Shown here in pieces: positions 25,041 to 57,900 of a stretch of DNA of 64,000 bases. This DNA comes from Mytilus trossulus (taxonomy: Eukaryota). The DNA lies in the NCBI RefSeq assembly GCF_036588685.1, contig NC_086386.1, forward strand, positions 55,118,001 through 55,182,000, in the 5' to 3' direction. The position numbers and the translations under genes are program-made. The notes under the pieces were generated by a model. That model was not told the DNA's origin and did not search any database. It saw nothing but the letters and a program-made list of their open reading frames with translations. How positions within the stretch are numbered: position 1 is the stretch's first letter; each line of letters starts with the position of its first letter.

Positions 25041-27679
25041 CATGTATGTTTCAATTAAATGGTAATACAGTGTTGGTTTGCATTTAATTGTGACAATGTA
25101 TTGATTTGAATATAACGAATTGCATTGTTTGTGGAGGAGGCTTAATATTTATTGTTTAATGTTTAACATTTATATGATGACCTCATGTACATAAACAATT
25201 CGGTCACCTCTTTGTGTTTGTTTTAGTTCGTATACATTATTTATCAGGTATAAGGATTAAATTGCAGACTGAATAAAAATCAAAAACTGCGAAAACATCA
25301 TCCGTTAAAAACTTGGGATAAAGAAAAATTGCCTCAAAGATACATAGAATTTTGAAGTGAAAGGCGCCACCAACTTACAGATTTACCTTTTCAAACGAAC
25401 ATGCGAAACTTAAAAACAAAATAGGAAAACAACAAATTTTGGAGCAGAAAAGGCCATTTTTTGTTGCAAGTTTTGCCTTATTTTGAAATTTTGAACAGTT
25501 TTAACTTAATGTTTTTTGTAATAATCGATATTTTCAGAACTAGTCTGTTTTATCTTAACGGCTCATCGACAACAAATGCCATGCAAACAGGTTTTTCTTT
25601 TAATGTATAATGATTTAGATTTTAAGAAATGCTCTACACTTCAACGTAAGACCAAGCATAACAGTTCCTATTTGAAATGCCATGGAATAGCCTAGGAGGT
25701 TTTACTTAGGATGGATGGATATGGTAAATACTTAGAATTATATCATAAGAACCGGGCATTACTAAACCTTGTCATAGCAAACTAACAAAATCCTTCCACT
25801 TCGATGCATTTTGTTCACTGTTTAACTTATTGTGTAAACCATCAATATTTTCAAGGTCAAACAGATATGTGATGTATATAAGCAAATCAGAAAAAAATGT
25901 AACAACCGAATGACACATAGAGGACAACAGACAGCTCGATAAATCCCGAAGGTGACATTTCGTCGAGTACCGATCAATCTAAAGAGCACCCTATTTTTTC
26001 AAATAATTAAGAAGCCAACGTAAGTTTCTGACAAGTTAGAGGGCACTATATAGCATGTTACAACAAAGAGAGCAACATACAGTCTCTATCAATCGAGAGG
26101 GCAACACACAATATAAAACAACTGGAATAGCAATATACCTTCTCTTTTAATGGGGCAACATATCATCTCGAGCAATGCACAATAAAAACCTTATATCGTA
26201 TAACGAATCTATGAAAATAGTGAATTACTAAAAAAATGTAAAATGTTTTCGTTGCAATCAAATAACTGAGGATGGCTGAAAATCTGGACAAATATAGATT
26301 ATCCTTGGTATTAAACAGTTTTTGTTACAAATTGTTAGCCGTAGAAGATTATTTCTAACTTGATTGACAATTTTATCTTTTTATCTCCTGTTTTCATTCC
26401 ATATTTTATCTCATTAAATTGTACTGTAGTGTTTCGGTCCATATAAGTTAAGGTAACTTTTAGGTTTTTATTAATTGAGCGATCGTGTTAGTCCTTGCTG
26501 ATAAAGACACACGGATAGCTGCATCATTACACTGTTTTTTTAGAAACATTGATTTGATGAATACAAAGATGCATTACCTTACCTTTAGGTTGTAATAAAC
26601 CATAAGTTATTATGGGCGCAGTCATTTTATGCACATGGTATTGAGGATTTAGAGTATCGTGGCTTAGTTGTGTACAGTCGACAATTCTTATACTATTTAC
26701 ATTTTTAGCAATCATGCCTAAAACGGAAAAAAAAGAGGAAAACTATTACGTATGCTTTGTCCGTAAAAGACGCGAAAAGTCTTTTCTATTCTGTGATGAG
26801 TCAAGTATTTCTATTTGTAGAATGGAAAGGTAAGGGAAATAGTTTCATATTGCGTTAATAAAAATAAAAGAAACCTTTATATTGATGACTAAACAACAAA
26901 AGTTTCCAATAATTGTTGTGTGATCATAGCCAGTTTCGTTCGAAATATCAACTTTCTAAAGTCTATCACGAGATCATCTACTATAGTAGCCTATTTGAAA
27001 ATCATTTGTAGCTATAAATTGCCAGTTAAACTGCGTTATGAAATTTTATCTTATTATGATCAAACCAGGTTTCCCTATATTGTTTGTAAACAAGTCAATT
27101 TTCACTATATTGCTTATAAACACTTCCTTTTTATCAATGAATGTTTATCATCTCGACTATCGACCAATGAAATTACCAGTTGATATGGCTCTATTGTATT
27201 GTTATCGAGTTTTCATTTCCGGAATGTTATTACTTGATCTATCTACATTAGGAAAATATATGTAACCTATCATCTTCGACATCGCAATAAACAAATTATT
27301 TAAACTTTGTGTACTTAGAGATCTAGTGTTTATCCAATGCACTCTATAACACATGTATGTTGTGTTGATTTGGTATATGATTGATATACCTATTGTTTAA
27401 TTAATTAAAAGAAAATGATTCAACTGTGTAATCACAAGCAACTGCATTGTACTTAATGGTTTGTTTAATTGTAAAAGTTATGATACAAATGTTAAATGTT
27501 TATAAAGCAGTCTATTAGGTAAAAAATATTAAAACTGTTTTCTTTGGTACAGCCGGATCTGTTTGAATAAAATCCATGACAAACAAGTTCGTGGAATTAA
27601 AGAGGGTTACGAAGAAGTAGAATTATTCCTTGAAACTTTTTAAATATGAGAGGTGCATTAATTAGTTACCAAAAAGAAG

Positions 27680-27990
27680 TACAAAACGAAAGTTCATTGA
27701 AGTATTCGGGGATTTTCAAGCAATTGTTTCATTTTGTAAAAGTGCACATTCTCTTCAGCTGCTCTGTGAGTATTACACATACTGTTTACAATACTATTTA
27801 GTTAACCGTTGTCAACTTTCGGTTAGACTCAATTGTTGTGGAGAATGAACATGATTTAAAGGTCATGACGTCGCAGAATATACTACGGACATCCGGATTT
27901 TGGAGAACGACAGAAATCGATTGATTAATCACTCTACACTGAAAGGACGCTATATAAGTAAACAGTCTACCTGTATTAAATCATTTAAAT
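27680..27990 (+). promoter_or_regulatory. Putative Pol II promoter of the 121-aa gene
   Basis: TATATAAG 27951-27958; Inr-like TCATTT 27981-27986; GGGGATTTTC 27708-27717 (kB-like); AAAACGAAAGT 27683-27693 and AACCGAAAGT on minus 27815-27824 (IRF-like); AAAGGTCA 27858-27865; TGACGTCG 27866-27873 (CRE-like); ACATCCGG 27889-27896 (ETS-like). Confidence 0.65.
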
Positions 27991-28076
27991 ATAAAACTCA
28001 GGTGAAGCAACGACTATCATTACAATTTTATTAACATATAGAGGTACCTACTTTGATATCAAAATTGTAAAATAGC

Positions 28077-28442
28077 ATGTCTTCTCTACGAATGGATAAC
28101 CGCCACAACATGGCTGCAAACGACCATGCCAGAAATCACATTAAGAGACAACAACAATGGATACGAAGTGACCAAGTGAAAAATTGGAGCAGATCTCCGT
28201 TAAATCGAGTGAAGAAACAAACGTATCCAAACAGTACGTCATCCGGACAAAAGTCGGATGTGATCAGTGGAAATTCAGACGAGTCTTTACATACAGCATC
28301 GTCCATTTTGGAACCACAAAATATAATGGACAATGAATATGATGATGAAAGAAAAGAAGCTATTGAAAAATGTATGAAATGGATGAATGACTTGCCTACA
28401 AAATTTTCCGGACTTCATATATTAGATCCAGCAAAATCTTGA
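28077..28442 (+). CDS. Uncharacterised intronless 121-aa protein; largely disordered, with a C-terminal acidic stretch and helix (EYDDERKEAIEKCMKWMNDLP)
   Basis: True ATG start, protein-like hydrophilic composition unlike the spurious ORFs, upstream TATA and Inr at correct spacing, structured downstream region and AATAAA. Confidence 0.75.
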   Translation: MSSLRMDNRHNMAANDHARNHIKRQQQWIRSDQVKNWSRSPLNRVKKQTYPNSTSSGQKSDVISGNSDESLHTASSILEPQNIMDNEYDDERKEAIEKCMKWMNDLPTKFSGLHILDPAKS

Positions 28443-29755
28443 GCTCGGAACATTTTTGCAAAAGAAATTATAAATGAGCGGCATTTTTAACCAAAAAAAT
28501 GCGTTTGTTTTTTGAAGTGCATTTTTGAAAAATGCTCGAGATATCGGAATATTTTTTCAGTGGAACTAGACGGGTTCTAGTTCCATGAACCGTGTTCATG
28601 GAACAGTTGGTGCTTTACAAAAAGACTTGGCTAAGCAATGTTGAGAGCTACGCAATTTTTAAAACAGCATATTTTGCCGACGCAACAAACAGTTCCTCGT
28701 AGCGAACTGTGAAAACACCTTAGTGTTAGAACTTACACGACACTCATATAGACATTCATTAATATAGAAGGAAGAATACGGGACAATTCTCCATTGGAGA
28801 ATATTAGTGCCAATATTTCAATGTGCCAAATGTTTTTCGTTGTATCGACTTTTTCTAGCTATGTTGTGTTTGTGTGGACTTGCTAAACAGAATCATAGAA
28901 ACTTAACTTTAGAATCACAAAAAAACAAAACGAATTTAATGTTTCCTGATTTTCAATATTGTTGACTTTTAAAAAATTATTTCGTAGTGATAATACGGAT
29001 ATATGTATGTTTGTTCGAACATTCATTCAAGCATTGTAAATTTGTTATTTAATGGATTTCTTTTTCATTTTGGTACATGTATGTTATCTCTTTTGTTCAT
29101 CGACAATTTTAGTTTTTGGAAAACAAATTAAAAAATGTTCCCACTTTTTTCATAAAGCTGGTTTTATTGTCAAATTAGAAAAAAAGAGAAACTAATCCAT
29201 ACCTTCTCTGGATATGATTTTTTTTTACCAAAAAATGCCCAACAAGTTTATGTTTTCTATTTGTTTACTTCATAACATTATGTTTTCTAAATTTTTTCAT
29301 TTTTTTTTTGTTAACATATCATATTTAATGTGTATTATTATCATGATTATGATTATATCTATTTATATATGAGATATTTTTATTATTTGGTTATCGTATT
29401 TTTTGTGATGAATAACTGTGATATGTTTGTTTACATTTTCATACAATTTTGATTTATCTAAATCAACCAAATTTACATTGCATTTTCATTTTCCGTTTAT
29501 TTGATAAGATCTTATGATGTACAAGTATATCAATGATAAAAAAAGAATTTTTAATTCTTGTAATTGAATAGTGTATGTGTCATTGCAATTTGGCAATGCT
29601 CTATTTGATTATGTTAAATATTGTATGCATAATTTAACTGTATAATTCTGGAAGAGAGGCATTAATATTATTTATTTATTGTTACAAATGTACGAATGAA
29701 GTTGAATATTAGATTATTACAGGAATGAAATAAATTAATTTGTTACTACATTGTT
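28443..29755 (+). promoter_or_regulatory. Putative ~1.3-kb 3' UTR with hairpins, miRNA seed matches, ARE and poly(A) signal
   Basis: Hairpin cluster 28453-28802; GTGCCAA at 28807 and 28823; CTGTGATA 29416-29423; TTATTTATTTATT 29668-29680; AATAAA 29729-29734. Confidence 0.5.
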
Positions 29756-31059
29756 CTTGAAAATTCTCATAATTTCTTACGATTTTCAATACCATAAAAT
29801 ACACGACGTATATTATACATGTAGCCATTGTATGGGTCACCGAACAATCTATGTCAATGAACAAATCACATATTACATAACTAGCTATGAAAAGACAATC
29901 CGACTTGACAAAACGTTACAAAATATAAAAAAAAAATCATATTTATTTCCCAAAGTCAAAAATTTGTCTTATAACAATTACCGATCGAGTGTGAAGAAAA
30001 TCATAATTAAACCTCACAAAACGAAGACTGCATTATATCTTATAACAATAAACTTGAGACAGTGCGGTTTTTTTTTACTGTCTTCCTGTTTCAGTCTTGT
30101 GTTTTGTTGACTGTTCTTCGTCTTTTGGTTGTTTTGTTTTTGCCATCGTCACTTTTTTTTTTTCTACTTACATGTATCCCTTTAAATATCCCTTTGTTAT
30201 AGTCTGTTTCTCTTTTGATCTACAATATATCAGAGAAAAATGAGATGTATAATAAATGCCAAGAAGACAGCAACCCAACAAAAAAGACATCTGGATTGAA
30301 ACCCTGTCTTTCCAATACAACACTCCTTCCTACATGTACCAATAGTTGTTTGACAAGAGTCCGTGCCTACATGTAGTTAGGATACGGATTATAATCTTTG
30401 TTCTCCAAATGACGACACCCGTTATCTGTGAGGGGTTATTTAGAATTACCTTTTATATTCTCTTGTTCATGAAAGTGTTGCTCAAGGTTTACATAAACTT
30501 CTTCAACATGGTTAATATGCATGACGTGTAACTCAACAAAATTGTTAAAAACACCAACAACAAAAAAACACTACAAGTGAAGTAGCCTAAACGTCGATAT
30601 ACGCCACTGAAAAACTAGATTGTATTTTAAAAGATACATTTGAAGTTTTTTTTTATCAGTGTGACTAAAGTGAAAAATGCAGCTTTAAATAATGCCATGA
30701 AATTTCGATTTATCCAATAAAACATCGTACAAGAGTATTAACAAACATCAATTTCCATAAAAAAAAATGAAATTCCACTTAACTACAATTTCTACTCTAG
30801 TGTCTACATTATAAAATATTCAAAGACTTATATTGATTGTTCATATCGCCTGTAACTAGATAAATTCACTCTATAGTAAAACTGATATATTATAATAATA
30901 AATTTAATCTTTCGTATTGGTGATAGAAGTGTTAAAAACCTTTCCTAAAACAATCCACGTTAGTTATTTTAAGTTTTTTTAAATGGACCAATAACGAAAA
31001 ATTTAAAAAGATTCCAAAGTGTTTAAAACAATGAATACAAGTGTATCAATTCAGATGGG

Positions 31060-32767
31060 CCAGAAATGTTTAATTAACAATCTTGACGTTCATATTCCTT
31101 ATTACATCATTTGCCATATTTTCAATTAGAGCCTGTAATCTATATCAGTAGACCAAAAACCAGCATTTTGAGGGCTTAATTAACATGCTATACTGTTGTC
31201 AGAAGTTGAAATTAAAATTTGCTGACACCTACTACATAAAGGGCCTGGATGAGGTAAACAAAGCTTGAAGGTCATGACAGTATGAGGTTTCAGATTTTCT
31301 GAATTTGAATTCATTTTATTCTATTTTTTTTCTATTTCTATTAGTAATAACTAATTAAAACAACCGTATTGCATTGAAAACATTATGAATAATTAACGGT
31401 CTTTTGGTCAAATAGGAAAAGGTTTGAAACAAAACCGGGTAAGCTAAAAAATCTTTATAAAAGGAGCGAAAGATTCAGAGCGACAGTCGAACACATTGAT
31501 CAAAAATAGCCAATACTAAACGAGAATTAGACAGACAAATATACGAACACAGGACACAACATTGATAACTAATACCAAGCAACACGAGCCCCATCAAAAG
31601 CTGGGGTGGTCTCATGTGCCCTAGAAGGGTAAGCAGATCCTGCTCTACATGTGGCACCCGTCGTGTGGCTCATGTTATAAAAAAACCAGTAAATAATCTA
31701 ATTCGGTATGTAACAATCATGAAAAGAAAACGGGATTGTCGATACGACATAAGTAACATATCCGATATCATCTGTGAAACGGATATTCCATAATGGTCAA
31801 CCAACTCGTGATGCCGTCTGTAAAATTTACGAAGGGATGATTTCAAATTCACCATGTGACACTCGTGGTGTAATAGTTAACGTGTGTAATATTTTTATCG
31901 AAACTGTATTTTACAATTTGAAAAAACAATCCTTCACATTGGATGTACTTAACAATCAGCACATATTCTGTTGATGTTTATTGTGAGAAGCAAAAGGGGG
32001 CACATGTGGTCCAGGACCCTCTTAAAGCAGCTACATATATAATTAATGCATAGTCATTTTGCATGTTCTACTCCTTCCGTAATTTTGTACGGCGGCCTCT
32101 TTATTTAACTTCTAGATCTGCATCAGATTTTATTTCTACGCCTAGTTTTATTGTTTTGTTGTCCTTTAAAGACGTCAAATAGTTAACATTGTGCCTCTAC
32201 ACAACTTTTTTAAGGATACATATTTCAACAAATATGACGGCATTCTCTGTTTCCAATTCAAGTCTTGATATTAGCAATTGATTTGATCGAGAGAAAGAAC
32301 AACAAGTGAATGCAATAACTAAATTAGAATTAAAACTAGGACATCTGAGACGTCATGCTGTCTTAATTTAGTTTAATATTCTTTGGACTTGTTTTAAAGC
32401 ACTTCAGCAACATTAACGTATAAAATTACTGGATATAAATACCCATTGTGGACATACATGTACCATTTGTTTATGTTGGATAATAGATAAAACAATATTG
32501 AAATCTGAACATGTGTCTTATATGTTTTAACAGTTGCTAGGAATATTTTGTTATTAAATTGTTATACCAGAAATGTTTAATTAACAATCTTGACGTTCAT
32601 ATTCCTTATTACATCATTTGCCATATTTTCAATTAGAGCCTGTAATCTATATCAGTAGACCAAAAACCAGCATTTTGAGGGCTTAATTAACATGCTATAC
32701 TGTTGTCAGAAGTTGAAATTAAAATTTGCTGACACCTACTACATAAAGGGCCTGGATGAGGTAAACA
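31060..32767 (+). repeat. Two identical 201-bp direct repeats (31060-31260, 32567-32767) flanking a 1.3-kb segment also present, diverged, at ~35360-36655
   Basis: Direct sequence comparison. Confidence 0.88.
31460..31853 (-). mobile_element. Penelope-like fragment
   Basis: MVNLKSSLRKFYRRHHELVDHYGISVSQM, homologous to 34090-34548. Confidence 0.65.
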
Positions 32768-34089: not shown

Positions 34090-34548
34090 AAGGTTGCTGC
34101 TCACAAGGAAGCTTTTAAACCAAGAGTTCCAAATGGTGAAGTTGAAATCATCCCTTCGTAAATTTTACGGACGCCATCACGAGTTGATTGACCGTTATGG
34201 AATTACCGTTTCTCAAATGACATCGGATATGTTCCTTACGTCGTAACTACAATTCCCTTCCCTTTCATGAATGTGACCTACCGAATTAGACTATTTACCG
34301 GATTTGTAATCGCATAAGCAACACGACGGGTGCCACATGTGGAGCAGGATATGCTTACCCTTCCGGAGCACCTGATATCACCCCAATTTATGGAGGGATT
34401 CGTGTTGTTTATTCTTTAGTTTTCTATGTTGTGTCATGTGTACTATTGTTTTCTGTTTTTCTTTTTTCATTTTTAGCCATGGCGTTGTCAGTTTGGTTTA
34501 GATATATATGAGTTTGACTGTCCCTTTGGTATCTTTCGTCCCTCTTTT
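34090..34548 (+). mobile_element. 5'-truncated Penelope-like retroelement fragment (RT C-terminus plus 3' region)
   Basis: Translates LLLTRKLLNQEFQMVKLKSSLRKFYGRHHELIDRYGITVSQMT; related copies at ~31460-31853 (-), ~35560-35943 (-), ~57490-57720 (+) and ~3125-3310 (degenerate); family assignment from recall. Confidence 0.65.
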
Positions 34549-35559
34549 AAGCTTGGAATCTTTGAAGACGTTTGGTTTTGATATATTTACTCAAATAAAA
34601 AATATTAGATGAGATTGACTTTCTTTATTTAATGATAAAAATTAAGAGATGTGGTATGATTGCCAATGATACATCTATCAACCAGAATTCAAATAAAGAG
34701 GGTGCTAGCTATTTTATGCAACCGGGCGGCCTTCTACAATGAGGAAAAAAAATTATATAGTTGGCAACAAAAGGCCCGACAAGTTTGACTCGTTGATGTT
34801 AGATTTCGAATATCGAATATGTTTTAGCAATAGAATTCCAATATCTTATATTGTTTGGTAGACAAACTATGAACTCAATGTCCTATATCACACCTTCAGT
34901 GGGCCAAATTGTATTAAGGACAACTAAGTGGGGATTAACATTTTAAATATAGGTACTGGTTGAAAAGAGTTTCAATATTTAGAACAAAGTATAAAGTCAA
35001 ATATTGAAATACTGTTGAGTAGGTCATTCCATTTAAAATGAATAACAACCAAACGGTTATTGCTTAGTATCAAACACGTGTATTTGATCTCTTATGGATT
35101 CTATATGGTTTTTTTTTAATATATATTCTATATTTTTTAAGGCCTAGTTCTCTATTTTTTCATATTTTTGACTATTATTCTCTATTTTTTATTTTTAAAT
35201 CAAATTTTTTCTTAATTCTTTATTTCTTTGCCTTTTTCTTTATTTTCGACAGTATTGGTCTCTTTTCTCTTGACCCTATCGATACCCCCATACTCTTTTT
35301 GTGACATCCTAAACATGGTTCTGAGGTTTGCATTATGACGTATCTCAGACAAAATAACCTTGAAGGTCTTGATAGTATGGGGTTTCAGATTTTCTGAATT
35401 TGAATTCATTTTATTCTAATTTTTTTTCTATTTCTATTAATGCTAACTTTTTGAAACAACCGTATTGTATTAAAAACATTATGAAAAACTAATGGTATTT
35501 TGATCAAATAGGAAAAGGTTTGAAACAAAAACGGATAAGCTAAAAAATCTGTATAAATG

Positions 35560-35943
35560 GGGTGAAAGATTCAGAGTGACAGTCGTACAGATTGATCGAA
35601 AATAGGCAATACTAAACGAGAAAAAGACAGACAGACACAGAACACAACATTGATAACTAAATACCAACAACACGAGCCCCATCAAAAGCTCAAAAAATCT
35701 CATGTGCCCCGGAAGAGTAAGCATATCCTGCTCTACATGTGGCACCCGTCGTGTTGCTCATGTTATCACAAAACCAGTAAATAATCTAATTCGGTAGGTC
35801 ACATTCGTAAAAAGGAAACGGGATTGTCGTCACAACATAAGGAACATGTCCGATATCACGTGTGAAACGAATATTCCATAATGGTCAACCAACTCGTGAT
35901 GCCGTCTGTAAAATTTACGAACGGATGATTTCAAGTTCACCAT
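35560..35943 (-). mobile_element. Penelope-like fragment, duplicate of the 31460-31853 insertion
   Basis: Same truncation point and homologous flanks as the 31.5-kb copy. Confidence 0.65.
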
Positions 35944-38900
35944 TTGAAACTGGTGGTGTGATAGCTAACGTGTGTAATATTTTCATAGAAACTGTATTTT
36001 ACGATTTGAAAAAAAAACCTTCACGTTGGATGTACTTAACAATCAGCAAATATTCTGTTGATGTTTATTTTGAGAAGCAAAAGGGGGGAACATATGTGGT
36101 TCAGGCCCCTCTTAAAGCAGCTACATATATAATTAATGCGATAGTAATTTTGCATGTTCTAATCCTTCCGTAATCTTGTACGGCGGCCTCTTTTTTTAAC
36201 TTCTAGATTTGTATCGGATTGTATTCCTACGCCTTGTTTTGTTGTTTGGTTGTCCATTTACGATGTCAAATAGTTAACATTTTGCCTCTACACAACTTTT
36301 AAAAGGATACATATTTTAACAAATATGACTACATTCTCTGTTTCCAATTCAAGTCTTAATGTTAGCAATTGACTTGATCAACAAACAGCACAACAAGTGA
36401 ATGCAATACCCAAATTAGAATTAAAACTAGAACAACTGTGACGTCATGCTGTCTTAATTTATTTAAACATATTCTTTGGACTCTTTTAAAGTATTTCAGT
36501 AACATTAAAGTATACAATTACTGAATATAAATCCATTATGTGGACATAACGTTTGTTTATGTTGGATAATAGATAAAACAAGATTGAAATCTGAATATGT
36601 GTCTTATATTTTTATGCAGTTGTTAGGAATATTTTGTTATTAAATTGTAATACCAAGAATCTAAAAGATTTTTTTTAAATTAAATATGATAATATTATAC
36701 ATCAAATGCTTATAATCAATGGTAATGTGTCCTTTTTTTATTTACATTTATATATGATATACGAAAATGATGTAATAAAACAGTTTTGACAAATAATGTA
36801 TTTTGGTATATTTGTCATTTGTGGTATCCAGCATTTCACGAGTAACTTCTATTCTCAGCATGGACACGGATATTTTGTATACATGTATGTTCATTGAAAA
36901 CTTTAAAATTCTCGGGAAATTGAGATATGAATTATTGTCGCTTTATTGAAAATTGTCAAAGTAAGTAGACCCTAGTTATTCAAGTCATACTATTAGAATA
37001 GTCTTAAATTTAAATCATATGCTGCAAGTAACATTCTCGCATTGGAAAATTAAAAAAATTGAAAGAGCAGTGTTTTTAACAAATGATCAAACAAGAAACT
37101 AGTATTTTTTTTTCCAATTTCCAACTTTGTTTCCCTTTTTTTTTTTATCTTATTTATGTACGATTTTCTAATTTCCTGAGCGTTGCGAGTTTCCTATTGT
37201 GACGTCATAAAAAGGCGACCATGTATGGTGACGTCAAATCACAACGTTTTACATCCTTTGAAAAGGATGGATACTAATCATTAGAGAAAAAAATATTTCA
37301 TTAATGTAACAAAAGTATTACGATATTTCTCCACATTTAAAATATAAATATTAAAAACAACACCTCGCGCTTTAAATAATATAGTTTAACTGTCTCTAGT
37401 GTAAAATTATCGTAACAAACTTGTTAGTTATGAAATCTATATTTTAAAAAATCAATCTGTTTAACATCTTTATCCCACGTCCCCACATCCTCACATTATT
37501 ACCCCCAATCACCACATCCGAAAGCGTGACATTTCTGTATCCTTTAGTTATTGCGTGAAAGCTCTCCTGCTTTCATTGTTTTTGGTGTTGAGGGTTCTAA
37601 AAGATGCGTACAATTATAAATTGAAGAGTTCTTAAGTTGATAAGTATAAAAAATATAGGGGGATGATGTTTAGTTTGATAATACTTTTCTTTGTGCTAGA
37701 CCATCATGAGTAGTAAATGACGTTTGCAACCCCCTCCGTTCAGATTATTCATTCATATATACAGCGTGTTTATATTAATATCAAATACCAATACAATACC
37801 GAAAGTTTAACATTTCTCATGCCAACTTTTATTTATAAATGTCAATCAATGCCCTTAAAATATATTCACACGACGTGTTCACATAGGTTAAATTCAAAAT
37901 ATAAACTAGCCAAATATGGAGATCATTAGCTACATAGACCGTATTGGTGAAGGATCGGTTTTTAAGAATTTCATTCAGGATAATCTAAATTAAAAGTGAA
38001 AGTTAAGTACTACGAGTTGTGATCCAGATTAAGTATATGGACAATGTAACATGTAGTACATATTGTATACTAAATAGCTCATTGGCGTAGTTGTAAATTT
38101 AAAAAAGTAAAATATGTGCCGGTAATGAAATGAAAGCAATAGGACTTGAAATCATTTAAGATTCATTGGAAATTAGAATGGCGTTCATTATCACTGAACT
38201 AGTATATATTTGTTGAGGGGCCAGCTGAAGGACGCCTCCGGGTGCGGGAATTTCTCGCTACATTGAAGACCTATAGGTGACTTTCTGCTGTTGTTTTTTT
38301 TATTTGGTCGGGTTGTTGTCTCTTTGACACATTCCCCATTTCCATTCTCAATTTTATTAAAGAAAGTTTCTAATGTATAAAATCCCAAAACATGATATTA
38401 AAATATAGGATGGTATTTTTGCTCTGTTAATCAGATTAGAAGTACTACTAAACTTTCAAGAACCAATGCGCCATAATATGAAGTTACAGGTTTAATCATG
38501 CTGATTTTTTTAGCAGCAATGAGGATAAGTTTTAAATGGCAATTAATTGGATTGAAGACAATAGACATGTAACTATGATTGATTGACATTGAAGAATTAA
38601 TATACAAAACAATGCGTCTATGATTGGTGAAATTATTCCTGGTACATCATATAGTGCAAATAAAAAAAAAGTGAAATTAGGACTTTGATAAACTGCGGTT
38701 CGACGGAAAAGTTCATTTGTAACGAAGGTATAAGACCTTGTATGTTTTCATTCTTTTAGAAAGTAAAAATGTTTTCCATTTGCTTTGCTGTTATAATTAA
38801 ACCAGATTAAAGCTGTCACAAACAAATATTCAACCTGCAAAAGCGGCCGTAAAGTAAGTAAAAATATTTTCAATACCTACTTCAATTTGTGAAGTAATTG

Positions 38901-50650: not shown

Positions 50651-50907
50651 AAAATACGATGTTCACAGTACGAAGTACAGGCTAGAATTAACTATATATA
50701 ACAGTCACTTTACAACCTAATTTTTTGGCGCCAAAAATTCCTACGCCTACACGTACATGTATTACACATGCGCAAGAAGACAATCAATTCCCGTTATACT
50801 TATGTGCCTCGGGAATTTTTTAGTCTTCTTTCCACTTAATACATCTTAACTATATAAAGAAAAACACAACACAAACTTATGTTGTTGACTAGCTCGAGTA
50901 CTGCATA
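50651..50907 (-). repeat. Internal B1-A2 junction (B1 50823-50907, A2 50651-50822)
   Basis: Directly abutting copies of both element termini, reproducing the expected circle junction. Confidence 0.93.
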
Positions 50908-50943
50908 GAGCAACAAAGATAGAAAAATAAGAAAATAAATATA

Positions 50944-51957
50944 CTACAAGCCTTAAGTTTTAGATACGGCTAACCTACTTTCTACAGAGTCGGCTACGTA
51001 GCCGTCTTTGCTTGAATCACTTTTCCACCTACCATGGCGCTTCCAGCACCTTTCATTGACACCTGAATTTGCCGCCATAGTGGCACCACCAGACCTAAGA
51101 GAATGCAACCCAAGATTCAATTCAGGTGCAACTAATCTTAATCTCTTAATAACACACTCCCTAGCAGTAGTGTAACTAATAGGTTTGTTAATACTAATTA
51201 ATGCACATTTTTTCTTACTTCTGTACAAAGGTCGAAATAAAAACATATCACTATCCAAAACTAATTCAGCTAAACTTACATATCTAAAAAACATAGCATA
51301 AGGACAAGCCAAAGTATGACCTTTACAAATTAAAATTTCATCACCTGATCTGTACTGATCAGTCTTACTTCGCCTAATCTTAATAACTAAATGCTCTTCT
51401 TTTACGAAAAAATCGTTACATCTAAGCTGACTTAACTCATTAAAACGTAAAAAACCACTGAAACCTAGCAAAGTCATCAAAAGATCCCTAACTACCAGTA
51501 AATCTGTAGAAAAATGAAACATAGAACATAACCGAATTAAAATATCAGTAGTGACTGGGTCTTTCTTATTAACAACAGGTTTAGCAGTTCTTTTAGCTGA
51601 TTCAACTAAACTTTCAACAAAAGAGTTATTTGTAGGGTCAATTTGACCACACATTTCATGTGCCCATTTAATTGAATAAACAGCAGATGATACCGTACTG
51701 TACGTTGATCCGGAATCTAACAAATTAGACAAATATAAAGCAATATGTATAGGCGAGGCAGGCATAGAAATTAAACAATGTTTACTAACAAATTTTTCCC
51801 ACTTTAAAAAAACCATAGTAATATTTTTTCACAGTACTGTCACTTCTGGATCCCAATAAACGTGTTGATAAGCTGGCAACCGAACTGTACAAAGGGTGAG
51901 TTTCATCAATTCCACTATGTTCCACGGCGTCACGCACAAACTGTTCTTGCTTTATTC
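50944..51957 (-). pseudogene. Tyrosine recombinase (YR) of the DIRS/PAT element
   Basis: Track ORF 50953-51816 holds the catalytic residues FLRFNE (R), RSKTDQ (K), HSLRSGG (HxxR), HGRW, GY (Y). The N-terminal part (IKQEQF..SRSDSTVKKYYYG) lies in another frame across a 7-T run at 51806-51812; TAA at 50953 probably truncates a terminal LGL. Confidence 0.92.
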
Positions 51958-51979
51958 CTGTGCAAAAGAAATACTACAA

Positions 51980-54799
51980 TCAAAATCTGATTTTAAAAGC
52001 AATCATTGCAAAATTCAAAGGATTTACTCCAAAAATACCATTATTACCTCTACCTCTTACAATTAAGTTTTTATTTGTAAGCCGCATTTTACTCTCAACA
52101 AAAGTGCAATTCGAATTGTGTAATAATGCCCAGAATGGAGCTGATTTCCAAAATGGAACAACAAGAGTACTGTCCGCGCTATCGTTGCATACTTTTCTAA
52201 TGACCTTGGCTATCAAATTTGGCGGTGGCGCCAACCAGTTATTTTCTCCTTGCCAATTTTGCGTGAAAGCGTCAATAGCTTCAGTACCTTTGCACCAACA
52301 TTTTGAATTAAACCTAAAACATTTACTGTTATAATCAGTAGCAAATCTATCTATAGAATGTTTTCCCCAAAGCTCATCAAGCATGTCAAACACATCAAAA
52401 TGAATTCCCCAATCATCACAATCTGAATATCTACTTAAAGTATCAGCTATTGTGTTTTGTTCCCGAGAACCCATTGTGTCTTAATACTTATATTGTTTTC
52501 TGTGCACAATTCATTTAAATCGCAAGCAATCTCTTGAAGATCTAACTTTCTACTACCGTTCTTAATTATGCTTGTAACGTTTTTATTATCAGTATTCAGT
52601 TGAACTGTATGATTTTTCAGCATTGTAACAGAACTTTTAACTACTCTACCTACTGCTTCAAGCTCTCTCCATGTAGAGCTTTTAACACTTTCAGATACCG
52701 ACCAGTTACTAGTCACAGTTATCAAACTGTTATAAGGAACTTCTAGACCACAATCAGTCATTTTCATAATACAATCAGAGTCACAGACAGACTCTGTATC
52801 AGCTGGGACTACATATCCCCCAAAGCCGACATCTGATGCGTCAGTATACGCCACAAAATCACAAAAATCTGACTCATGCAGATTAAAACCCTTTCTATTG
52901 AACTTTCTTACGTTCTCAAACCAAAAATATAGCTCTTCAATAGCTACAGAATTCAATACTACAAGCGAGTTCCAACTTGCTCTCATTATAAGACAATTGT
53001 ACAATTCTCGAGTTCTAAGTCTACAAACGTTTCCCATTACAGACATCATTGATATTATCTGTCCAACAATACCAGCCACAAATCTAGCATTATACAAAAG
53101 CTTGCCTTTACCTACACTTATCAATGTTTTGTCAATAACAGAAAGAAGTCTTTCGACTCTCTCCTCGGTAATACTCAATTTTCCAAATTGCATTTCCCAA
53201 AATAACCCTATCCAAGTAATATTCTGTACAGGCAACCATATACATTTCTCTTCTGCTATTAAAAAACCAAACTCTGTCAAACTTTCTCTTACAAAAGTGC
53301 TAACACGGTGTGCTCAATCGAAGTTACTGTCTCCGCCCAAACCATCATCTAAGTACATTAGGATTCTAAAACCTTGACTCCTCCAGTACTTAACAACTTC
53401 TTTTGTAAGTTTGGTAAATATATGACCAGCGCTAGCAATTCCAAAAGGAAGAACATTAAATACATAATATCTGGTTGTCCCTTCAAATTGCCAACTAAAA
53501 CCTGTGATCTGGCAATATCTCTATGTGATGATAAGCACTTTTTAAATCAAAGCGAAACAGATAATTTCCTTTATTAAATAGTTGCTTGGCAACTGACCCA
53601 TCTTCAAACTTAAATTTAAACTGATGTATTCACTCGTTGATATGTCTGCAATCTAGAACCAATCTAGGTTTTGCTGATCTGTTATATGCTACCGTTAGCG
53701 GATTTACTACATACGGTATTTCGTGTACTTCTGAAATACACTTCTTATCTAATAATTTAGAAATTTCACCATTTACAAAAACAGAATTATCTAAAGATGA
53801 TTTATTATTTCTGAGAACACAACTGTCTGGAAGAGTTTTAAATGGTATACCATAGCCTTGCTCTATTACTTTTAAAATGTACTCTCTTGTACCAGTCTCC
53901 TTCCATTTGTGTATTGCCTTATTTAATTTACCTACTGGTGTCAAAACATTCACCTGTAAATTTAAATGACCAGACGTCTGGTCATTACTCTCGTCATACC
54001 TGACTGAACCGTTAACACAATTGACCATTGTTTCGTTTACCTCTTTGTGAGCAGAATTCAATAAACGACTCCCCCCTTTTAACTCAAAATTTGATTTGTA
54101 ACTCAAATCCCAAGCTAAATTACAACATTTATCAAATATTTTACTTAACTTTGGTCGTTTCTTTTCAGGACACTCATTCTGCCAATGACCAGGCTTGTAA
54201 CAATTATAACAAACACCAGGCTTCCTTGATACTGTCTGTCTATCTCTGCTTCCACTGGAACTCGCTGGTTTTACATAAGGCTCAGCGCGGGATCTCCTCT
54301 TTACTCTGTCTGCTTTGATCTTCCTTTCCGCTCTGTTTTGTGCTTGAAATATCTTTCTGTCATCTTCTGAATCGTCCGCCAAAGGATTTGCGGTATACTC
54401 CTGAACTAATTTCCACCCACATTCTGAAGAGTCTGCCATCTTTACTAATTTTTGCCGATAATTTAAAAGTTCAATACCTTCAGATATCTTCTGTTTAGCC
54501 CTCGCGGCAGATGGGTCTTTTGGCTCGATAACAGCTTCTGCTTCTTTCAACGCGACAGACACTTTCTGGTTGAACTTAAATTGATCTTCACAACTTTTCC
54601 TCTGAAATTTGTAACTGTCTGTTGATAAAAGGTCATTGTGAATACGGTTGAACTGTGCGTCCGAACGTTCCTTCTGTTGCTGGTCATAAACTTGAAATTT
54701 AGTAGTAAATAAACTGTCCAACTTAGATAAAAATTCATTCTGTGATCTATTTACTTCTTCACTAACGATACGCTTCACATTATTTTCTAAGTCATCCAT
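51980..54799 (-). pseudogene. Disrupted gag-pol polyprotein (gag zinc knuckle, reverse transcriptase, RNase H, DNA methyltransferase-like domain)
   Basis: ATG at 54799 (MDDLENN); CYNCYKPGHWQNEC; NPLTV..KPRLVLDCR; FDLKSAYHHI; VLPFG; YLDD at 53344-53355; YTDAS, SSTWRELEA, TDN (RNase H); DRFAT..FNS..DAFTQNW..NWLAPPP (MT-like). Lesions: TGA 53630-53632, frameshift ~53500, TGA 53314-53316, frameshift ~52467. Confidence 0.92.
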
Positions 54800-54823
54800 A
54801 GCGCGACGGTGAACGGCACTCAC

Positions 54824-54995
54824 AAAATACGATGTTCACAGTACGAAGTACAGGCTAGAATTAACTATATATAACAGTCACTTTACAACCTAATTTTTTG
54901 GCGCCAAAAATTCCTACGCCTACACGTACATGTATTACACATGCGCAAGAAGACAATCAATTCCCGTTATACTTATGTGCCTCGGGAATTTTTTA
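54824..54995 (-). repeat. Split direct repeat A1 (172 bp), probably carrying the element promoter
   Basis: Identical by eye to 50651-50822; TATATATAG on the minus strand near 54870; palindrome TTTTTGGCGCCAAAAA at 54895-54910. Confidence 0.93.
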
Positions 54996-57900
54996 TTCGC
55001 CGCGTGTCATTAAGAAGAATCGAATAAACTTTTCGAGCCAATTTACTAAAATGGCTGAAGAGTCTGTTTATGTTTGCTTAAAAGAAAAAGACATGTTCTC
55101 CTACATGTCCCATGTTTATTCAAACATTTACCGTTATTTTTAAGACAAATAATATTTTATTTCATTTGTACATAATTAGCAAAGAAAAATAAACATTATG
55201 CTGTAGACATTTTACGAGCCATTTTCAGTCAATCAATAAAGTAGCATTTATTTGACGATGTGTGTTCACTTTCATTTCATTATTTTTCCATACACAAAAG
55301 TAGCTTTAAAACCACTAAAAGCATATTGTCAGACAACAAATATGATTGCTTTTAGTTAAACAAGATAGTCTATATTGCGATGGGCGTGGGTGTGGGATGC
55401 GATACGGCATTTATTTCTGTATTCTTTATTTTTTTAAATCATTTTTATCTATATTGCGCTTAATTCTCTATATATTCTCTATTTTAGAGCAATAGTTTCA
55501 TCCTTGACGATAATTCTGGTGTTTTGTTGGGCTTTTTTTTTTGGAGGGGGGGGTATTTTTCGTTTGGTCCCTTTATTTTTCTTTCTCCATCATCAAACCC
55601 CATCCAGACCCTTAAACCTGTAAAGCAAACATAATTTGTGGCTATTTTATTCCATCCATTGTAACATGCCATAGTGTCGTGTTAAAGAAACCCCGTAGAG
55701 ACAATACCAAACGAAAACTTAGAGTTATCTTATGTGCAATGCGTCACCAATTGACACACTTAGAGGTCGGATTCTTTATGTTGACTCATTCTAAAAGAGC
55801 TAGCATGTTAAAATAAAGTTTGTCGGCGGAATGCATAGCGACGATCTAAGTAATATCGTATGGATATCATATGTTCCCATCGAGATACACATTTAATATA
55901 TGTCAGTGGGCGTTGCACATCAGTTCGGTCAATCATTTAAATGTTTGTGAAAATTTATCCATCCCTCTTTCCTAATGAATGCAACCATCCAGTAAGAAAG
56001 TCTTTAATATAGCTGTACCAGTGTTGATTCTAACGTCGCAGAGTACTTAACCATCCCTGTTAAGCTTTTGAATGTTTAGGTGTAAACTTTTCTGATGATT
56101 ATGAATCCTGAAAGTGACTAGGATGATGTACAATTTAAAAGGGTGTTTATTTCATTTACGTGCAAAAAATAGAGCAAAAGTGTCTAAAGATTAAAAAATA
56201 AATAAATGAGGCACCCCATCCTCCTAAATCCAGACTTCATAAATATAAAATTGAGAATGGAAATGGGGAATATATTAAAGAGACAATAACCCGACCAGCA
56301 TTCGATGGTCGTCGATGCGTCTACATGGCATCAATAAAATCCCGCATCCGGAGGTGGGCCTCGGCTGCCCTCAGCTGGCATCCAAATAAAAAATTGTAAA
56401 GTTCAGTGAAAGCGACAGTCACACTTATCTCATAGACAAATGTTTTTAAAAAACATACAAAGGCCAGACGTTCCATATATGGAAAAGGCGTTAAAATGCG
56501 GCGGGGTAAATTATTTTTTATGAGATTTATCCTCTCCGTTTTGCTATACCGCAAGCCAACGCAGAATAAAGAAACTTAAAGTAAAACTGAGTTAAAAAGA
56601 AGTCCAATTCCGTTGTACATTTGTAAGATCAGTTCTTAAACATGTTCATGATGTTTAAAGATCATCATTTCTAAATATTCAATACGAAACGAAAAATCAC
56701 TTTTCCTCCTGAAAACGCGGGGATCAAGCTTATTTATGAATTGTTCAGAGATATAGATCATAATGCACTGCTTGTACTGGTAAATAAAGCAACAACACTG
56801 ATGGAAATAAATTGTTTTTAATTTAAGTTGTCTACCATGGAAAGAGTATTTAAAGTCTCATCAAAAAGTGTTTGCATTGTTGTCAACTTATTATATAACG
56901 TTGATAATTGATTTTGATATAATATAAGGATATTTGAACAAGGATAAACAAAAACACAATACCGCATAATTTGTTTTGGATATTTAGCGACGAATTACTG
57001 AAGTTCGTTTGTAGATAGATATTTTAAATGCTATTATCAAACGTATGTCGTAGTGGGTGACATTGATTTTAATGTTTTTTTATTTATTTGTAGCGAGGAA
57101 CGCAAGAAAATTAAGCTTATTTCCGTATAATGAACGAAATTTTGTTTCATGTTTTTTGATTATCTTCTCTGAATGGAAAAACTTCCGCATGTTGTGCCTT
57201 GACCTCGTAACATGTAACAATTGATATTTTTTCTTTGAAATTCACCTTCGTTTATATCGTGTTTTACGTTTCTAAGCGTTTATACATAATGAATAGGTTT
57301 CAAATGTATGTTTTACCGCTCCCGATGAAAATTATCCAGAAATGCTGTTCGCACGCACGGTATAAATTAAACGTTTTTTTTATTATTCACAGGAAGCCTA
57401 ACCACAATGAAACGTTAAATAAACGTTAGAATATAATACATACATTGCATTTGACATTAACCTAGCAGGGCACTTTGCAATACTTTTCCCTTTTCACAAA
57501 TGTGACCTACCGATCGCGACTATTTACTGGATTTGTAATAACACAAGCAACATGACGGATGCATCATGTGAAGCAGGACTTTCTTACCCTTCTGGAGCAC
57601 CAGAGATCACCCCAATAGTTGGTGTGATTCGGATATCTTAGTCTTACGTTTTCTATGTTGTGTCTTGTTTACTATTATTTTTCTGTTTGACTGTCCCTCT
57701 GGTATATTTCGCCCTTCTTTTGAAAGGCGCCTGAAATATTCTATTTTACACGAGAAACCTCTTCTTGGCTTTTCTTTTTTGGTATCGTGTTTTCTACTTA
57801 TGTAACCATACATTTGATCATAAGATGATGAAAGAAGTTTTAGTGACCTTGACTGACTATACAGGTCTAAGTACAAATGGCCATGGATGTCTCGAAATTC

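Follow-up and report, generated by a model that had tools for sequence, protein, structure and literature searches.

Candidate repressive elements in a hairpin-rich mussel 3′ UTR: a CNGG-loop hairpin and paired miR-96/263 seed sites

Directly downstream of a short ORF of the mussel Mytilus trossulus, ~350 nt of DNA are crowded with perfect inverted repeats, and the locus raises the question of whether these hairpins regulate an mRNA and, if so, which of them matter. A preliminary description had read them as a multi-stem decay module of the Roquin/Regnase type, possibly switch-like, in which two overlapping stems would hide or expose a constitutive decay element (CDE). Here we analyse the window, i.e. 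the whole 64 000 nt stretch of contig NC_086386.1 that contains the array, together with a homologous locus and contigs of sequencing runs; the features discussed are collected in Table 1.

Table 1. Positions and properties of the features in the window
Feature	Position	Strand	Description
CRE-like motif (presumed)	27866..27873	+	~210 nt upstream of the start codon; also in L001, as a full palindrome
121-codon ORF	28077..28442	+	Uninterrupted; uncharacterised mollusc family with C-terminal KC..W...LP.KFSG motif
hp1	28453..28463	+	4-bp A-U stem, UGC loop; predicted probability 0.00; altered in a relative's loose end (X3, 28472)
hp2	28481..28502	+	8-bp stem, hexaloop; predicted probability 0.8–0.94; loop not of ADE type; L001 lacks it in this form
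hp3	28519..28535	+	7-bp stem, UGA triloop; predicted probability 0.07–0.71 by context; not conserved
hp4	28557..28588	+	10-bp stem (13 bp with bulged G); CNGG(N) loop at 28571–28575, Smaug recognition element-like
hp5	28580..28604	+	11-bp stem, CGU triloop; in competition with hp4; missing in L001
CDE of the preliminary description	28581..28589	+	4-bp stem, CAU loop; predicted not to form; not conserved
miR-317 7mer-A1 seed match	28592..28598	+	Conserved; predicted buried in both loci (accessibility 4th–20th percentile)
hp6	28689..28710	+	7-bp stem; predicted probability 0.77–0.98; 3′ arm sequence conserved, 5′ partner varies among relatives
5-bp stem	28714..28727	+	CUUA loop; not conserved
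hp7	28786..28802	+	7-bp stem, AUU loop; stem kept in relatives, loop varies (AGU, GAGUAA)
miR-96/miR-263 seed sites (two)	28807..28830	+	7mer-m8 and 8mer, 16 nt apart; just outside the hairpin stretch
K-box/miR-2 8mer site	29416..29423	+	Distal UTR; recurs at 2586 of L001 and in a loose end of X6
AU-rich element nonamer (presumed)	29668..29680	+	Near the 3′ end; recurs in homologous context at 2823 of L001
Polyadenylation signal (likely)	29729..29734	+	Sole AATAAA in 28443–29760; contig ends nearby are a weak hint

The gene and the extent of its 3′ UTR

The array follows a 121-codon ORF whose stop codon lies at 28440–28442. The best named relative of the 121-residue product is M. trossulus LOC134695960 (83 % identity), and a profile search with the protein returned 24 representatives at E ≤ 0.001; ten of these were looked up, the named ones coming from scallops, a unionid and Littorina and all being uncharacterised. 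Scallop LOC110455954 and LOC132551151 are among the named homologs. The C-terminal motif given in Table 1 is common to the family. A Pfam search gave nothing above the cut-off and a PDB search no solved relative, whilst an AlphaFold model (mean pLDDT 62, pTM 0.23) consists of two helices in an otherwise disordered chain; plant 'Josephin-like' clusters retrieved from the ESM Atlas at 0.75–0.81 are a lead only. No paper naming the three LOC identifiers or the accession searched was found in a literature search, and both gene and locus appear to be undescribed in the literature searched.

From 529 candidate stretches we recovered one homologous locus, L001, which is an ortholog, a paralog or a divergent allele, and the conservation reported below is drawn chiefly from these two full sequences, with fragments besides. 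Between the two loci the protein is 82 % identical, whilst only 14 of 29 fourfold sites (~48 %) are the same, so that purifying selection acts on the ORF, which is thus a gene. That it represents a last exon was ruled out, the 330-aa homolog forming one continuous frame in L001. A search for further homologous DNA in prokaryote genomes yielded none from 20 candidate stretches; from 17 viral-contig candidates one (L002) was obtained and rejected as a chance match, as it lies inside a 585-aa phage ORF that, from its translation, looks SbcC/Rad50-like.

Upstream of the conserved Met, the frame stays open for 142–224 codons in L001 (915–1523) and in five database homologs; the window matches this upstream frame from 27861 only (27861–28076), with two stops within. 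Other copies of the gene may thus specify a long isoform that has the CRE-like motif inside its coding sequence, and for the copy in the window the short form alone could be made. The sole DV dipeptide upstream of the conserved Met is found 69–80 codons before it in all five long-ORF homologs, which, compared as protein only, would fit the presence of the same DNA motif. Conserved blocks also occur at approximately 27888–27898, 27966–27974 and 27999–28006, which we take to be an ETS-like GACATCCGGA and two E-box-like motifs of the CACCTG/CAGGTG type around an AT-rich, TATA-like stretch. A presumed CRE-like motif, coding sequence confined to one exon and a presumed AU-rich element together point to a gene that is probably inducible.

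Contigs from four of 20 listed runs were aligned to the window: X2, which is DNA, and X3, X6 and X14. The RNA label of X6 and X14 is a guess and that of X3 was not established; contigs of all three behave like RNA, covering roughly 28062–29720 (X3 from 27854) and leaving 27300–27804 and 29724–30228 without cover, where the DNA run X2 has it. A 90 %-identical relative (X6 record 25), and not the allele of the window itself, bridges the stop codon, extending from 28062 to 28557, and the hairpins are covered by near-identical pieces such as X3 record 18 (28473–28851, four differences). Contigs end at 29719 in X6 and at 29694 in X3, with X2 continuing past these points, and some runs have no contig cover at 29118–29399 inside the UTR. 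The hairpins therefore likely sit within the first 390 nt of a ~1.3-kb 3′ UTR, so that the placement of the region in the mRNA, assumed in the preliminary description, is supported by contigs whose RNA label is partly guessed. For 28062–29000, run X6 contains a near-identical copy alongside copies that are ~87–90 % identical, one of them like the M. trossulus protein; these mixed copies may be paralogs, very divergent alleles or the product of mixed animals.

Density and conservation of the hairpin array

The window is ~31 % GC and rich in repeats. At 50651–54998 on the minus strand it contains ORFs that resemble gag, reverse transcriptase/RNase H, methyltransferase and tyrosine recombinase genes; direct repeats of 175 nt, 99 % identical, lie on either side, and from the translations this region reads like a DIRS/Ngaro-type retroelement in pieces. 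A duplicated segment is found at 31323–32574 and 35419–36660 (spacing ~4.09 kb, 88–90 % identical), with inverted copies near 34102–34410.

All eight stems of the preliminary description, as well as the 9-mer at 28581–28589 that it had taken for a CDE, were found where it had placed them. Counting perfect Watson–Crick stems of at least 7 bp with loops of 3–8 nt, six occur in 28453–28802, a density clearly above background, as none of 2000 dinucleotide shuffles reached five (maximum four) and none matched the two stems of at least 10 bp. Across the whole window there are 51 perfect stems of at least 7 bp, and this is the densest stretch (Poisson P ~1 × 10−4, corrected for 183 windows). Folding against shuffled controls gave a weaker signal: the energy is modestly better (z = −1.95), with four of 100 shuffles as good. 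Moreover, the stems cannot be counted as separate events: a single GC-T-run/A-run-GC motif is present twice, as hp2 and as hp3, whilst hp4 and hp5 draw on one A-A′-A triplet (28556–28566, 28580–28589 and 28595–28604).

The array as such is not conserved. The proximal UTR of L001 aligns with that of the window at ~70 % of ungapped columns and shares 24 of 387 7-mers with it, yet the homologous region is not hairpin-rich: it has three perfect stems of 5–6 bp and none of at least 7 bp, with a z-score of −0.20. The hairpin that corresponds to hp3 there has a GGG loop and another register, and hp6 has a fold z of −0.42 in L001, with an X14 loose end at 28720; the loop variants of hp7 in relatives were read from X3 and X14 loose ends at 28800. 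Exactly conserved UTR blocks of 8–11 nt lie at 28604–28612, 28679–28686, 28704–28714 and 28726–28733, for which no matching seed was found in the part of the miRNA list that was compared; seeds for these four blocks may occur elsewhere in that list. A long-range helix from the stop codon to 28604–28625 was considered and dropped, different bases being used in the window and in L001.

Such a pattern invites a neutral explanation, according to which template switching, short duplication and A/T-run slippage in an AT-rich UTR produced the stems and none was selected, hp4 included. The lack of conservation and the reduction of the stems to two repeated motifs speak for it, and among the differences listed for the aligned runs (40 of 453 considered, absence from these not being taken as evidence) the indels of relatives sit in the A/T runs of hp2–hp3. 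Furthermore, the linker at 28583–28591, between two invariant blocks, agrees with L001 at a minority of positions and reads exactly as the reverse complement of the sequence next to it; a change cluster of this type is the pattern described for template switching in the available text of PMC8794818, the direction of change here being a matter of two loci compared without an outgroup. As an account of the whole stretch, however, neutrality is unlikely: a six-pair core and the CNGG of hp4 are kept although only about half of the fourfold sites are, the changes in the loop all respect a published consensus, and the conserved miR-96 pair is left unexplained.

The CNGG-loop hairpin and the microRNA seed sites

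Compared with one full homolog plus fragments, hp4 is the conserved structural element of the hairpin stretch. Its stem is the longest CNGG-capped stem on either strand of the window, where the loop CGGGU sits on 11 bp including one G-U pair (10–11 bp by either count), a length reached by three of 3000 UTR shuffles; in L001 the loop CUGGUU closes a stem of 7 bp plus an extension, and 88 of 3000 shuffles of L001 reach those 7 bp. Beyond the invariant six-pair core the two loci extend the stem past the bulged G with different sequences. According to the portion of PMC4053848 consulted, the Smaug recognition element (SRE) of flies is CNGGN0–3 on a non-specific stem, and is best as CUGG in a 5-nt loop preceded by G. 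Both loops agree with this consensus, searched here as CNGGN0–4, as do the differences between relatives: the N position of CNGG is changed in all four aligned runs (28572 G>T, among the differences listed), so that relatives carry CUGG and changes in the loop are confined to its free positions. A second SRE-like stem, with a 4-nt loop, is found at 29158 and has no match in L001. In the part of PMC4082630 available, pearl oyster gonad is reported to have yielded a contig annotated as smaug homolog 1, and our literature search found no paper on Smaug function in bivalves.

Several observations count against a Smaug-based reading. The known fly targets of Smaug, nanos and Hsp83, are described with several SREs, whereas one strong SRE is present here. 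In the allele of the window, the predictions have hp5 masking the CNGG loop for the most part, with a probability for the loop of 0.00–0.47 depending on temperature and context, compared with 0.96–1.0 in L001. The burial of the miR-317 site in both loci and the UTR blocks that are conserved to an equal degree also weigh against the wider reading.

The same loop might be read by a different protein with the opposite outcome, in that ZCCHC14 would bind the CNGG pentaloop and recruit TENT4, whose mixed tailing would stabilize the mRNA rather than repress it. As far as the accessible text of PMC11055085 goes, ZCCHC14 is linked to TENT4 and binds CNGGN pentaloops, and the stem-loop of hepatitis B virus (HBV) carries CAGGU as its loop and one bulged G; in the window and in L001 alike, the stem contains a bulged G and the fifth loop position is U. 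This analogy is nevertheless quite improbable as an explanation, as the pentaloop of the window is a loop of six nucleotides in L001, the neighbouring conserved elements are repressive, and the known examples in that source are viral.

Foremost among these neighbouring elements is a pair of GTGCCAA heptamers at 28807 and 28823, the only two plus-strand copies in the window, which recur in L001 with the same 16-nt spacing around a diverged spacer. The seven copies on both strands of the window are not above chance; what stands out is the conservation of the pair. In the part of the supplement of PMC7773633 that was compared by eye (part 13 of 15 of its Mytilus miRNA list), GTGCCAA is the seed match of miR-96a and miR-263 from M. 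galloprovincialis hemocytes, with miR-96b also listed. The predicted accessibility of the sites falls between the 63rd and 82nd percentiles, and they thus have the properties of a canonical target, i.e. conserved and accessible matches to the seed of a miRNA of the genus, through which repression is predicted. In total, three of the 24 conserved 7-mers match seeds of two Mytilus miRNA families, and under a crude model two or more families would be expected with a probability of P = 0.01–0.03. The distal K-box site was assigned via the miR-2c sequence in the same partial supplement; this site, the AU-rich nonamer and the polyadenylation signal recur in both distal UTRs.

Roquin-type decay, a two-state switch and the preferred reading

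The multi-stem Roquin/Regnase-1 module proposed in the preliminary description is already weakened because conservation is lacking, and we regard it as highly doubtful. Within the text available, a relaxed CDE rule demands a stem of 6–8 bp with a YRN loop, 5 bp being weaker and 9 bp inactive in TNF (PMC6294493), whilst another calls for YRU loops on 6–8 bp, discriminates against tetra- and pentaloops, and gives a C-G closing pair as the favoured polarity for a middle G (PMC11609897); the exact UUCYRYGAA string is not among the rules taken from these two partial sources. A review, likewise available in part, has YRY triloops shared by Regnase-1 and Roquin. 'Several' YRY triloops had been claimed: UGC and CGU, two of the four triloops, are of this kind, and UGA and AUU are not. 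With a CGU loop and a C-G closing pair hp5 has a suitable apex on an over-long stem of 11 bp, hp1 and the named CDE have 4 bp each, and hp7 has an AUU loop. Only hp3 satisfies the relaxed rule, as one of 12 such Watson–Crick stems on the plus strand of the window, and its predicted probability of up to 0.71 exceeds the 5 % required of a CDE even at its lowest, whilst hp1 and the named CDE stay at 0.00 in every context tried; hp1 probably does not form. In L001, the sole homolog compared, no CDE stem with its triloop is kept, the named CDE is replaced and hp5 is missing; the UTR of L001 contains no Watson–Crick YRN stem of at least 6 bp, and neither UTR has an alternative decay element (ADE) hexaloop of the GUUYUA type, for which a stem of at least 6 bp is required, even on a stem of 4 bp or more. 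UAU-triloop stems occur in the distal UTR, at 29602–29620 in the window (8 bp with G-U pairs) and at 2783–2795 in L001 (5–6 bp); these are not clearly homologous and, by loop, would be better CDE candidates than the stems at 28453–28802.

The mutual exclusivity of 28561–28585 and 28580–28604 was correctly recognized, the two competing at similar predicted energy at 37 °C. The idea that their overlap hides or exposes the CDE fails, because the CDE is hidden in both competing folds; it is the CNGG loop that toggles instead. With the CNGG loop or hp5 forced, respectively, ensemble energies are −25.3 vs −25.7 kcal/mol at 37 °C, −31.8 vs −33.6 at 25 °C and −37.6 vs −40.6 at 15 °C, gaps of 0.4, 1.8 and 3.0 kcal/mol that are near the error of the model. 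When hp5 forms, the 5′ arm of hp4 is predicted to slide its register onto the loop and so destroy it; in sampled windows the loop has a probability of 0.03–0.15 at 37 °C and of at most 0.002 at 15 °C, reaching 0.47 at best in a longer context, and placing T at 28572 does not restore it in the folding model. In this allele, hp4 could gain the advantage through a bound protein or through folding while the RNA is being transcribed.

From these predictions one could construct a selected A-A′-A switch between a Smaug/ZCCHC14-type CNGG loop, exposed when warm or protein-bound, and an 11-bp YRY-capped stem that buries the miR-317 site together with the loop when cold, the balance shifting over 10–35 °C. 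The shared triplet, the graded energy gaps and the sliding register would suit it, and if true it would mean that temperature tunes the fate of an inducible gene's mRNA, in some alleles or lineages only, and would be the sole part of this locus to surprise a specialist. Such a switch is very improbable, however, as L001 has no hp5, its linker pairs upstream only, and without a competing fold its CNGG loop is predicted to be constitutive, and as the energy gaps are so small. Finally, it is scarcely credible that the stretch belongs to an element at the DNA level, the remnant of a MITE or Helitron, or to a structured RNA gene: perfect stems are strand-symmetric and the window is repeat-rich, but none of the repeat families listed covers the hairpin stretch, DNA depth over it is not raised, it is collinear with the gene in L001, and an Rfam search of 26000–31000 gave three hits, the best of 20.4 bits against a cut-off of 50 and none near its gathering threshold.

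The reading we prefer, to which we give an even chance, is a repressive 3′ UTR assembled from known parts. A SAM-domain protein of the Smaug/SAMD4 type would read the CNGG-loop hairpin, repress translation and promote deadenylation, whilst the tandem miR-96/263 sites, with the weaker miR-317, K-box and AU-rich sites, would recruit Argonaute and ARE proteins; together these would make the mRNA short-lived. Most of the other perfect stems, hp5 included, would have arisen within particular lineages as side products of local duplication, slippage in A/T runs or template switching. The sequence, its UTR position, its conservation against one full homolog and its match to a published consensus are in hand; binding of protein and miRNA, direction of effect, inducibility and the mutational origin of the other stems are what we infer. 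None of the proposed parts is of a new kind, and the whole looks like ordinary mRNA control. If true, this would be a first candidate target of a Smaug-family protein and miR-96/263 in a mussel, on a conserved mollusc gene without known function, and a compact reporter for both kinds of regulation. The locus also carries a caution, in that the striking density of perfect hairpins is mostly not conserved, whilst the conserved parts are a loop motif and seed sites that the preliminary description did not name.

Set beside known systems, the array shares with Roquin CDE/ADE and Regnase-1 stem-loops (TNF, UCP3) the occurrence of short 3′ UTR hairpins, here two with YRY triloops and one with YRN on a 7-bp stem; it differs in that the YRY hairpins, at 4 and 11 bp, lie outside the range of 6–8 bp, in that none is conserved and in having no ADE. 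With the ZCCHC14-TENT4 elements (HBV PRE SL-alpha, HCMV RNA2.7) hp4 has in common a CNGGU loop, a long stem and a single bulged G, and is set apart by its place in a cellular mRNA, the six-nucleotide loop in L001 and the opposite expected effect. In comparison with the element read by Drosophila Smaug, yeast Vts1 and mammalian SAMD4, it is a single strong copy, predicted to be mostly occluded in the allele of the window, in a mollusc and with putative binding; it resembles that element in that CNGG stands at the 5′ end of a loop of 5–6 nt on a stem of free sequence, in that relatives have CUGG and L001 a G just ahead of the loop, and in its 3′ UTR position, as in nanos. Relative to paired canonical miRNA seed sites (miR-96/263; K-box), the target here is a predicted one, and the likeness lies in two conserved, accessible matches at a spacing of 16 nt, between which the sequence has diverged and whose miRNAs are expressed in Mytilus hemocytes.
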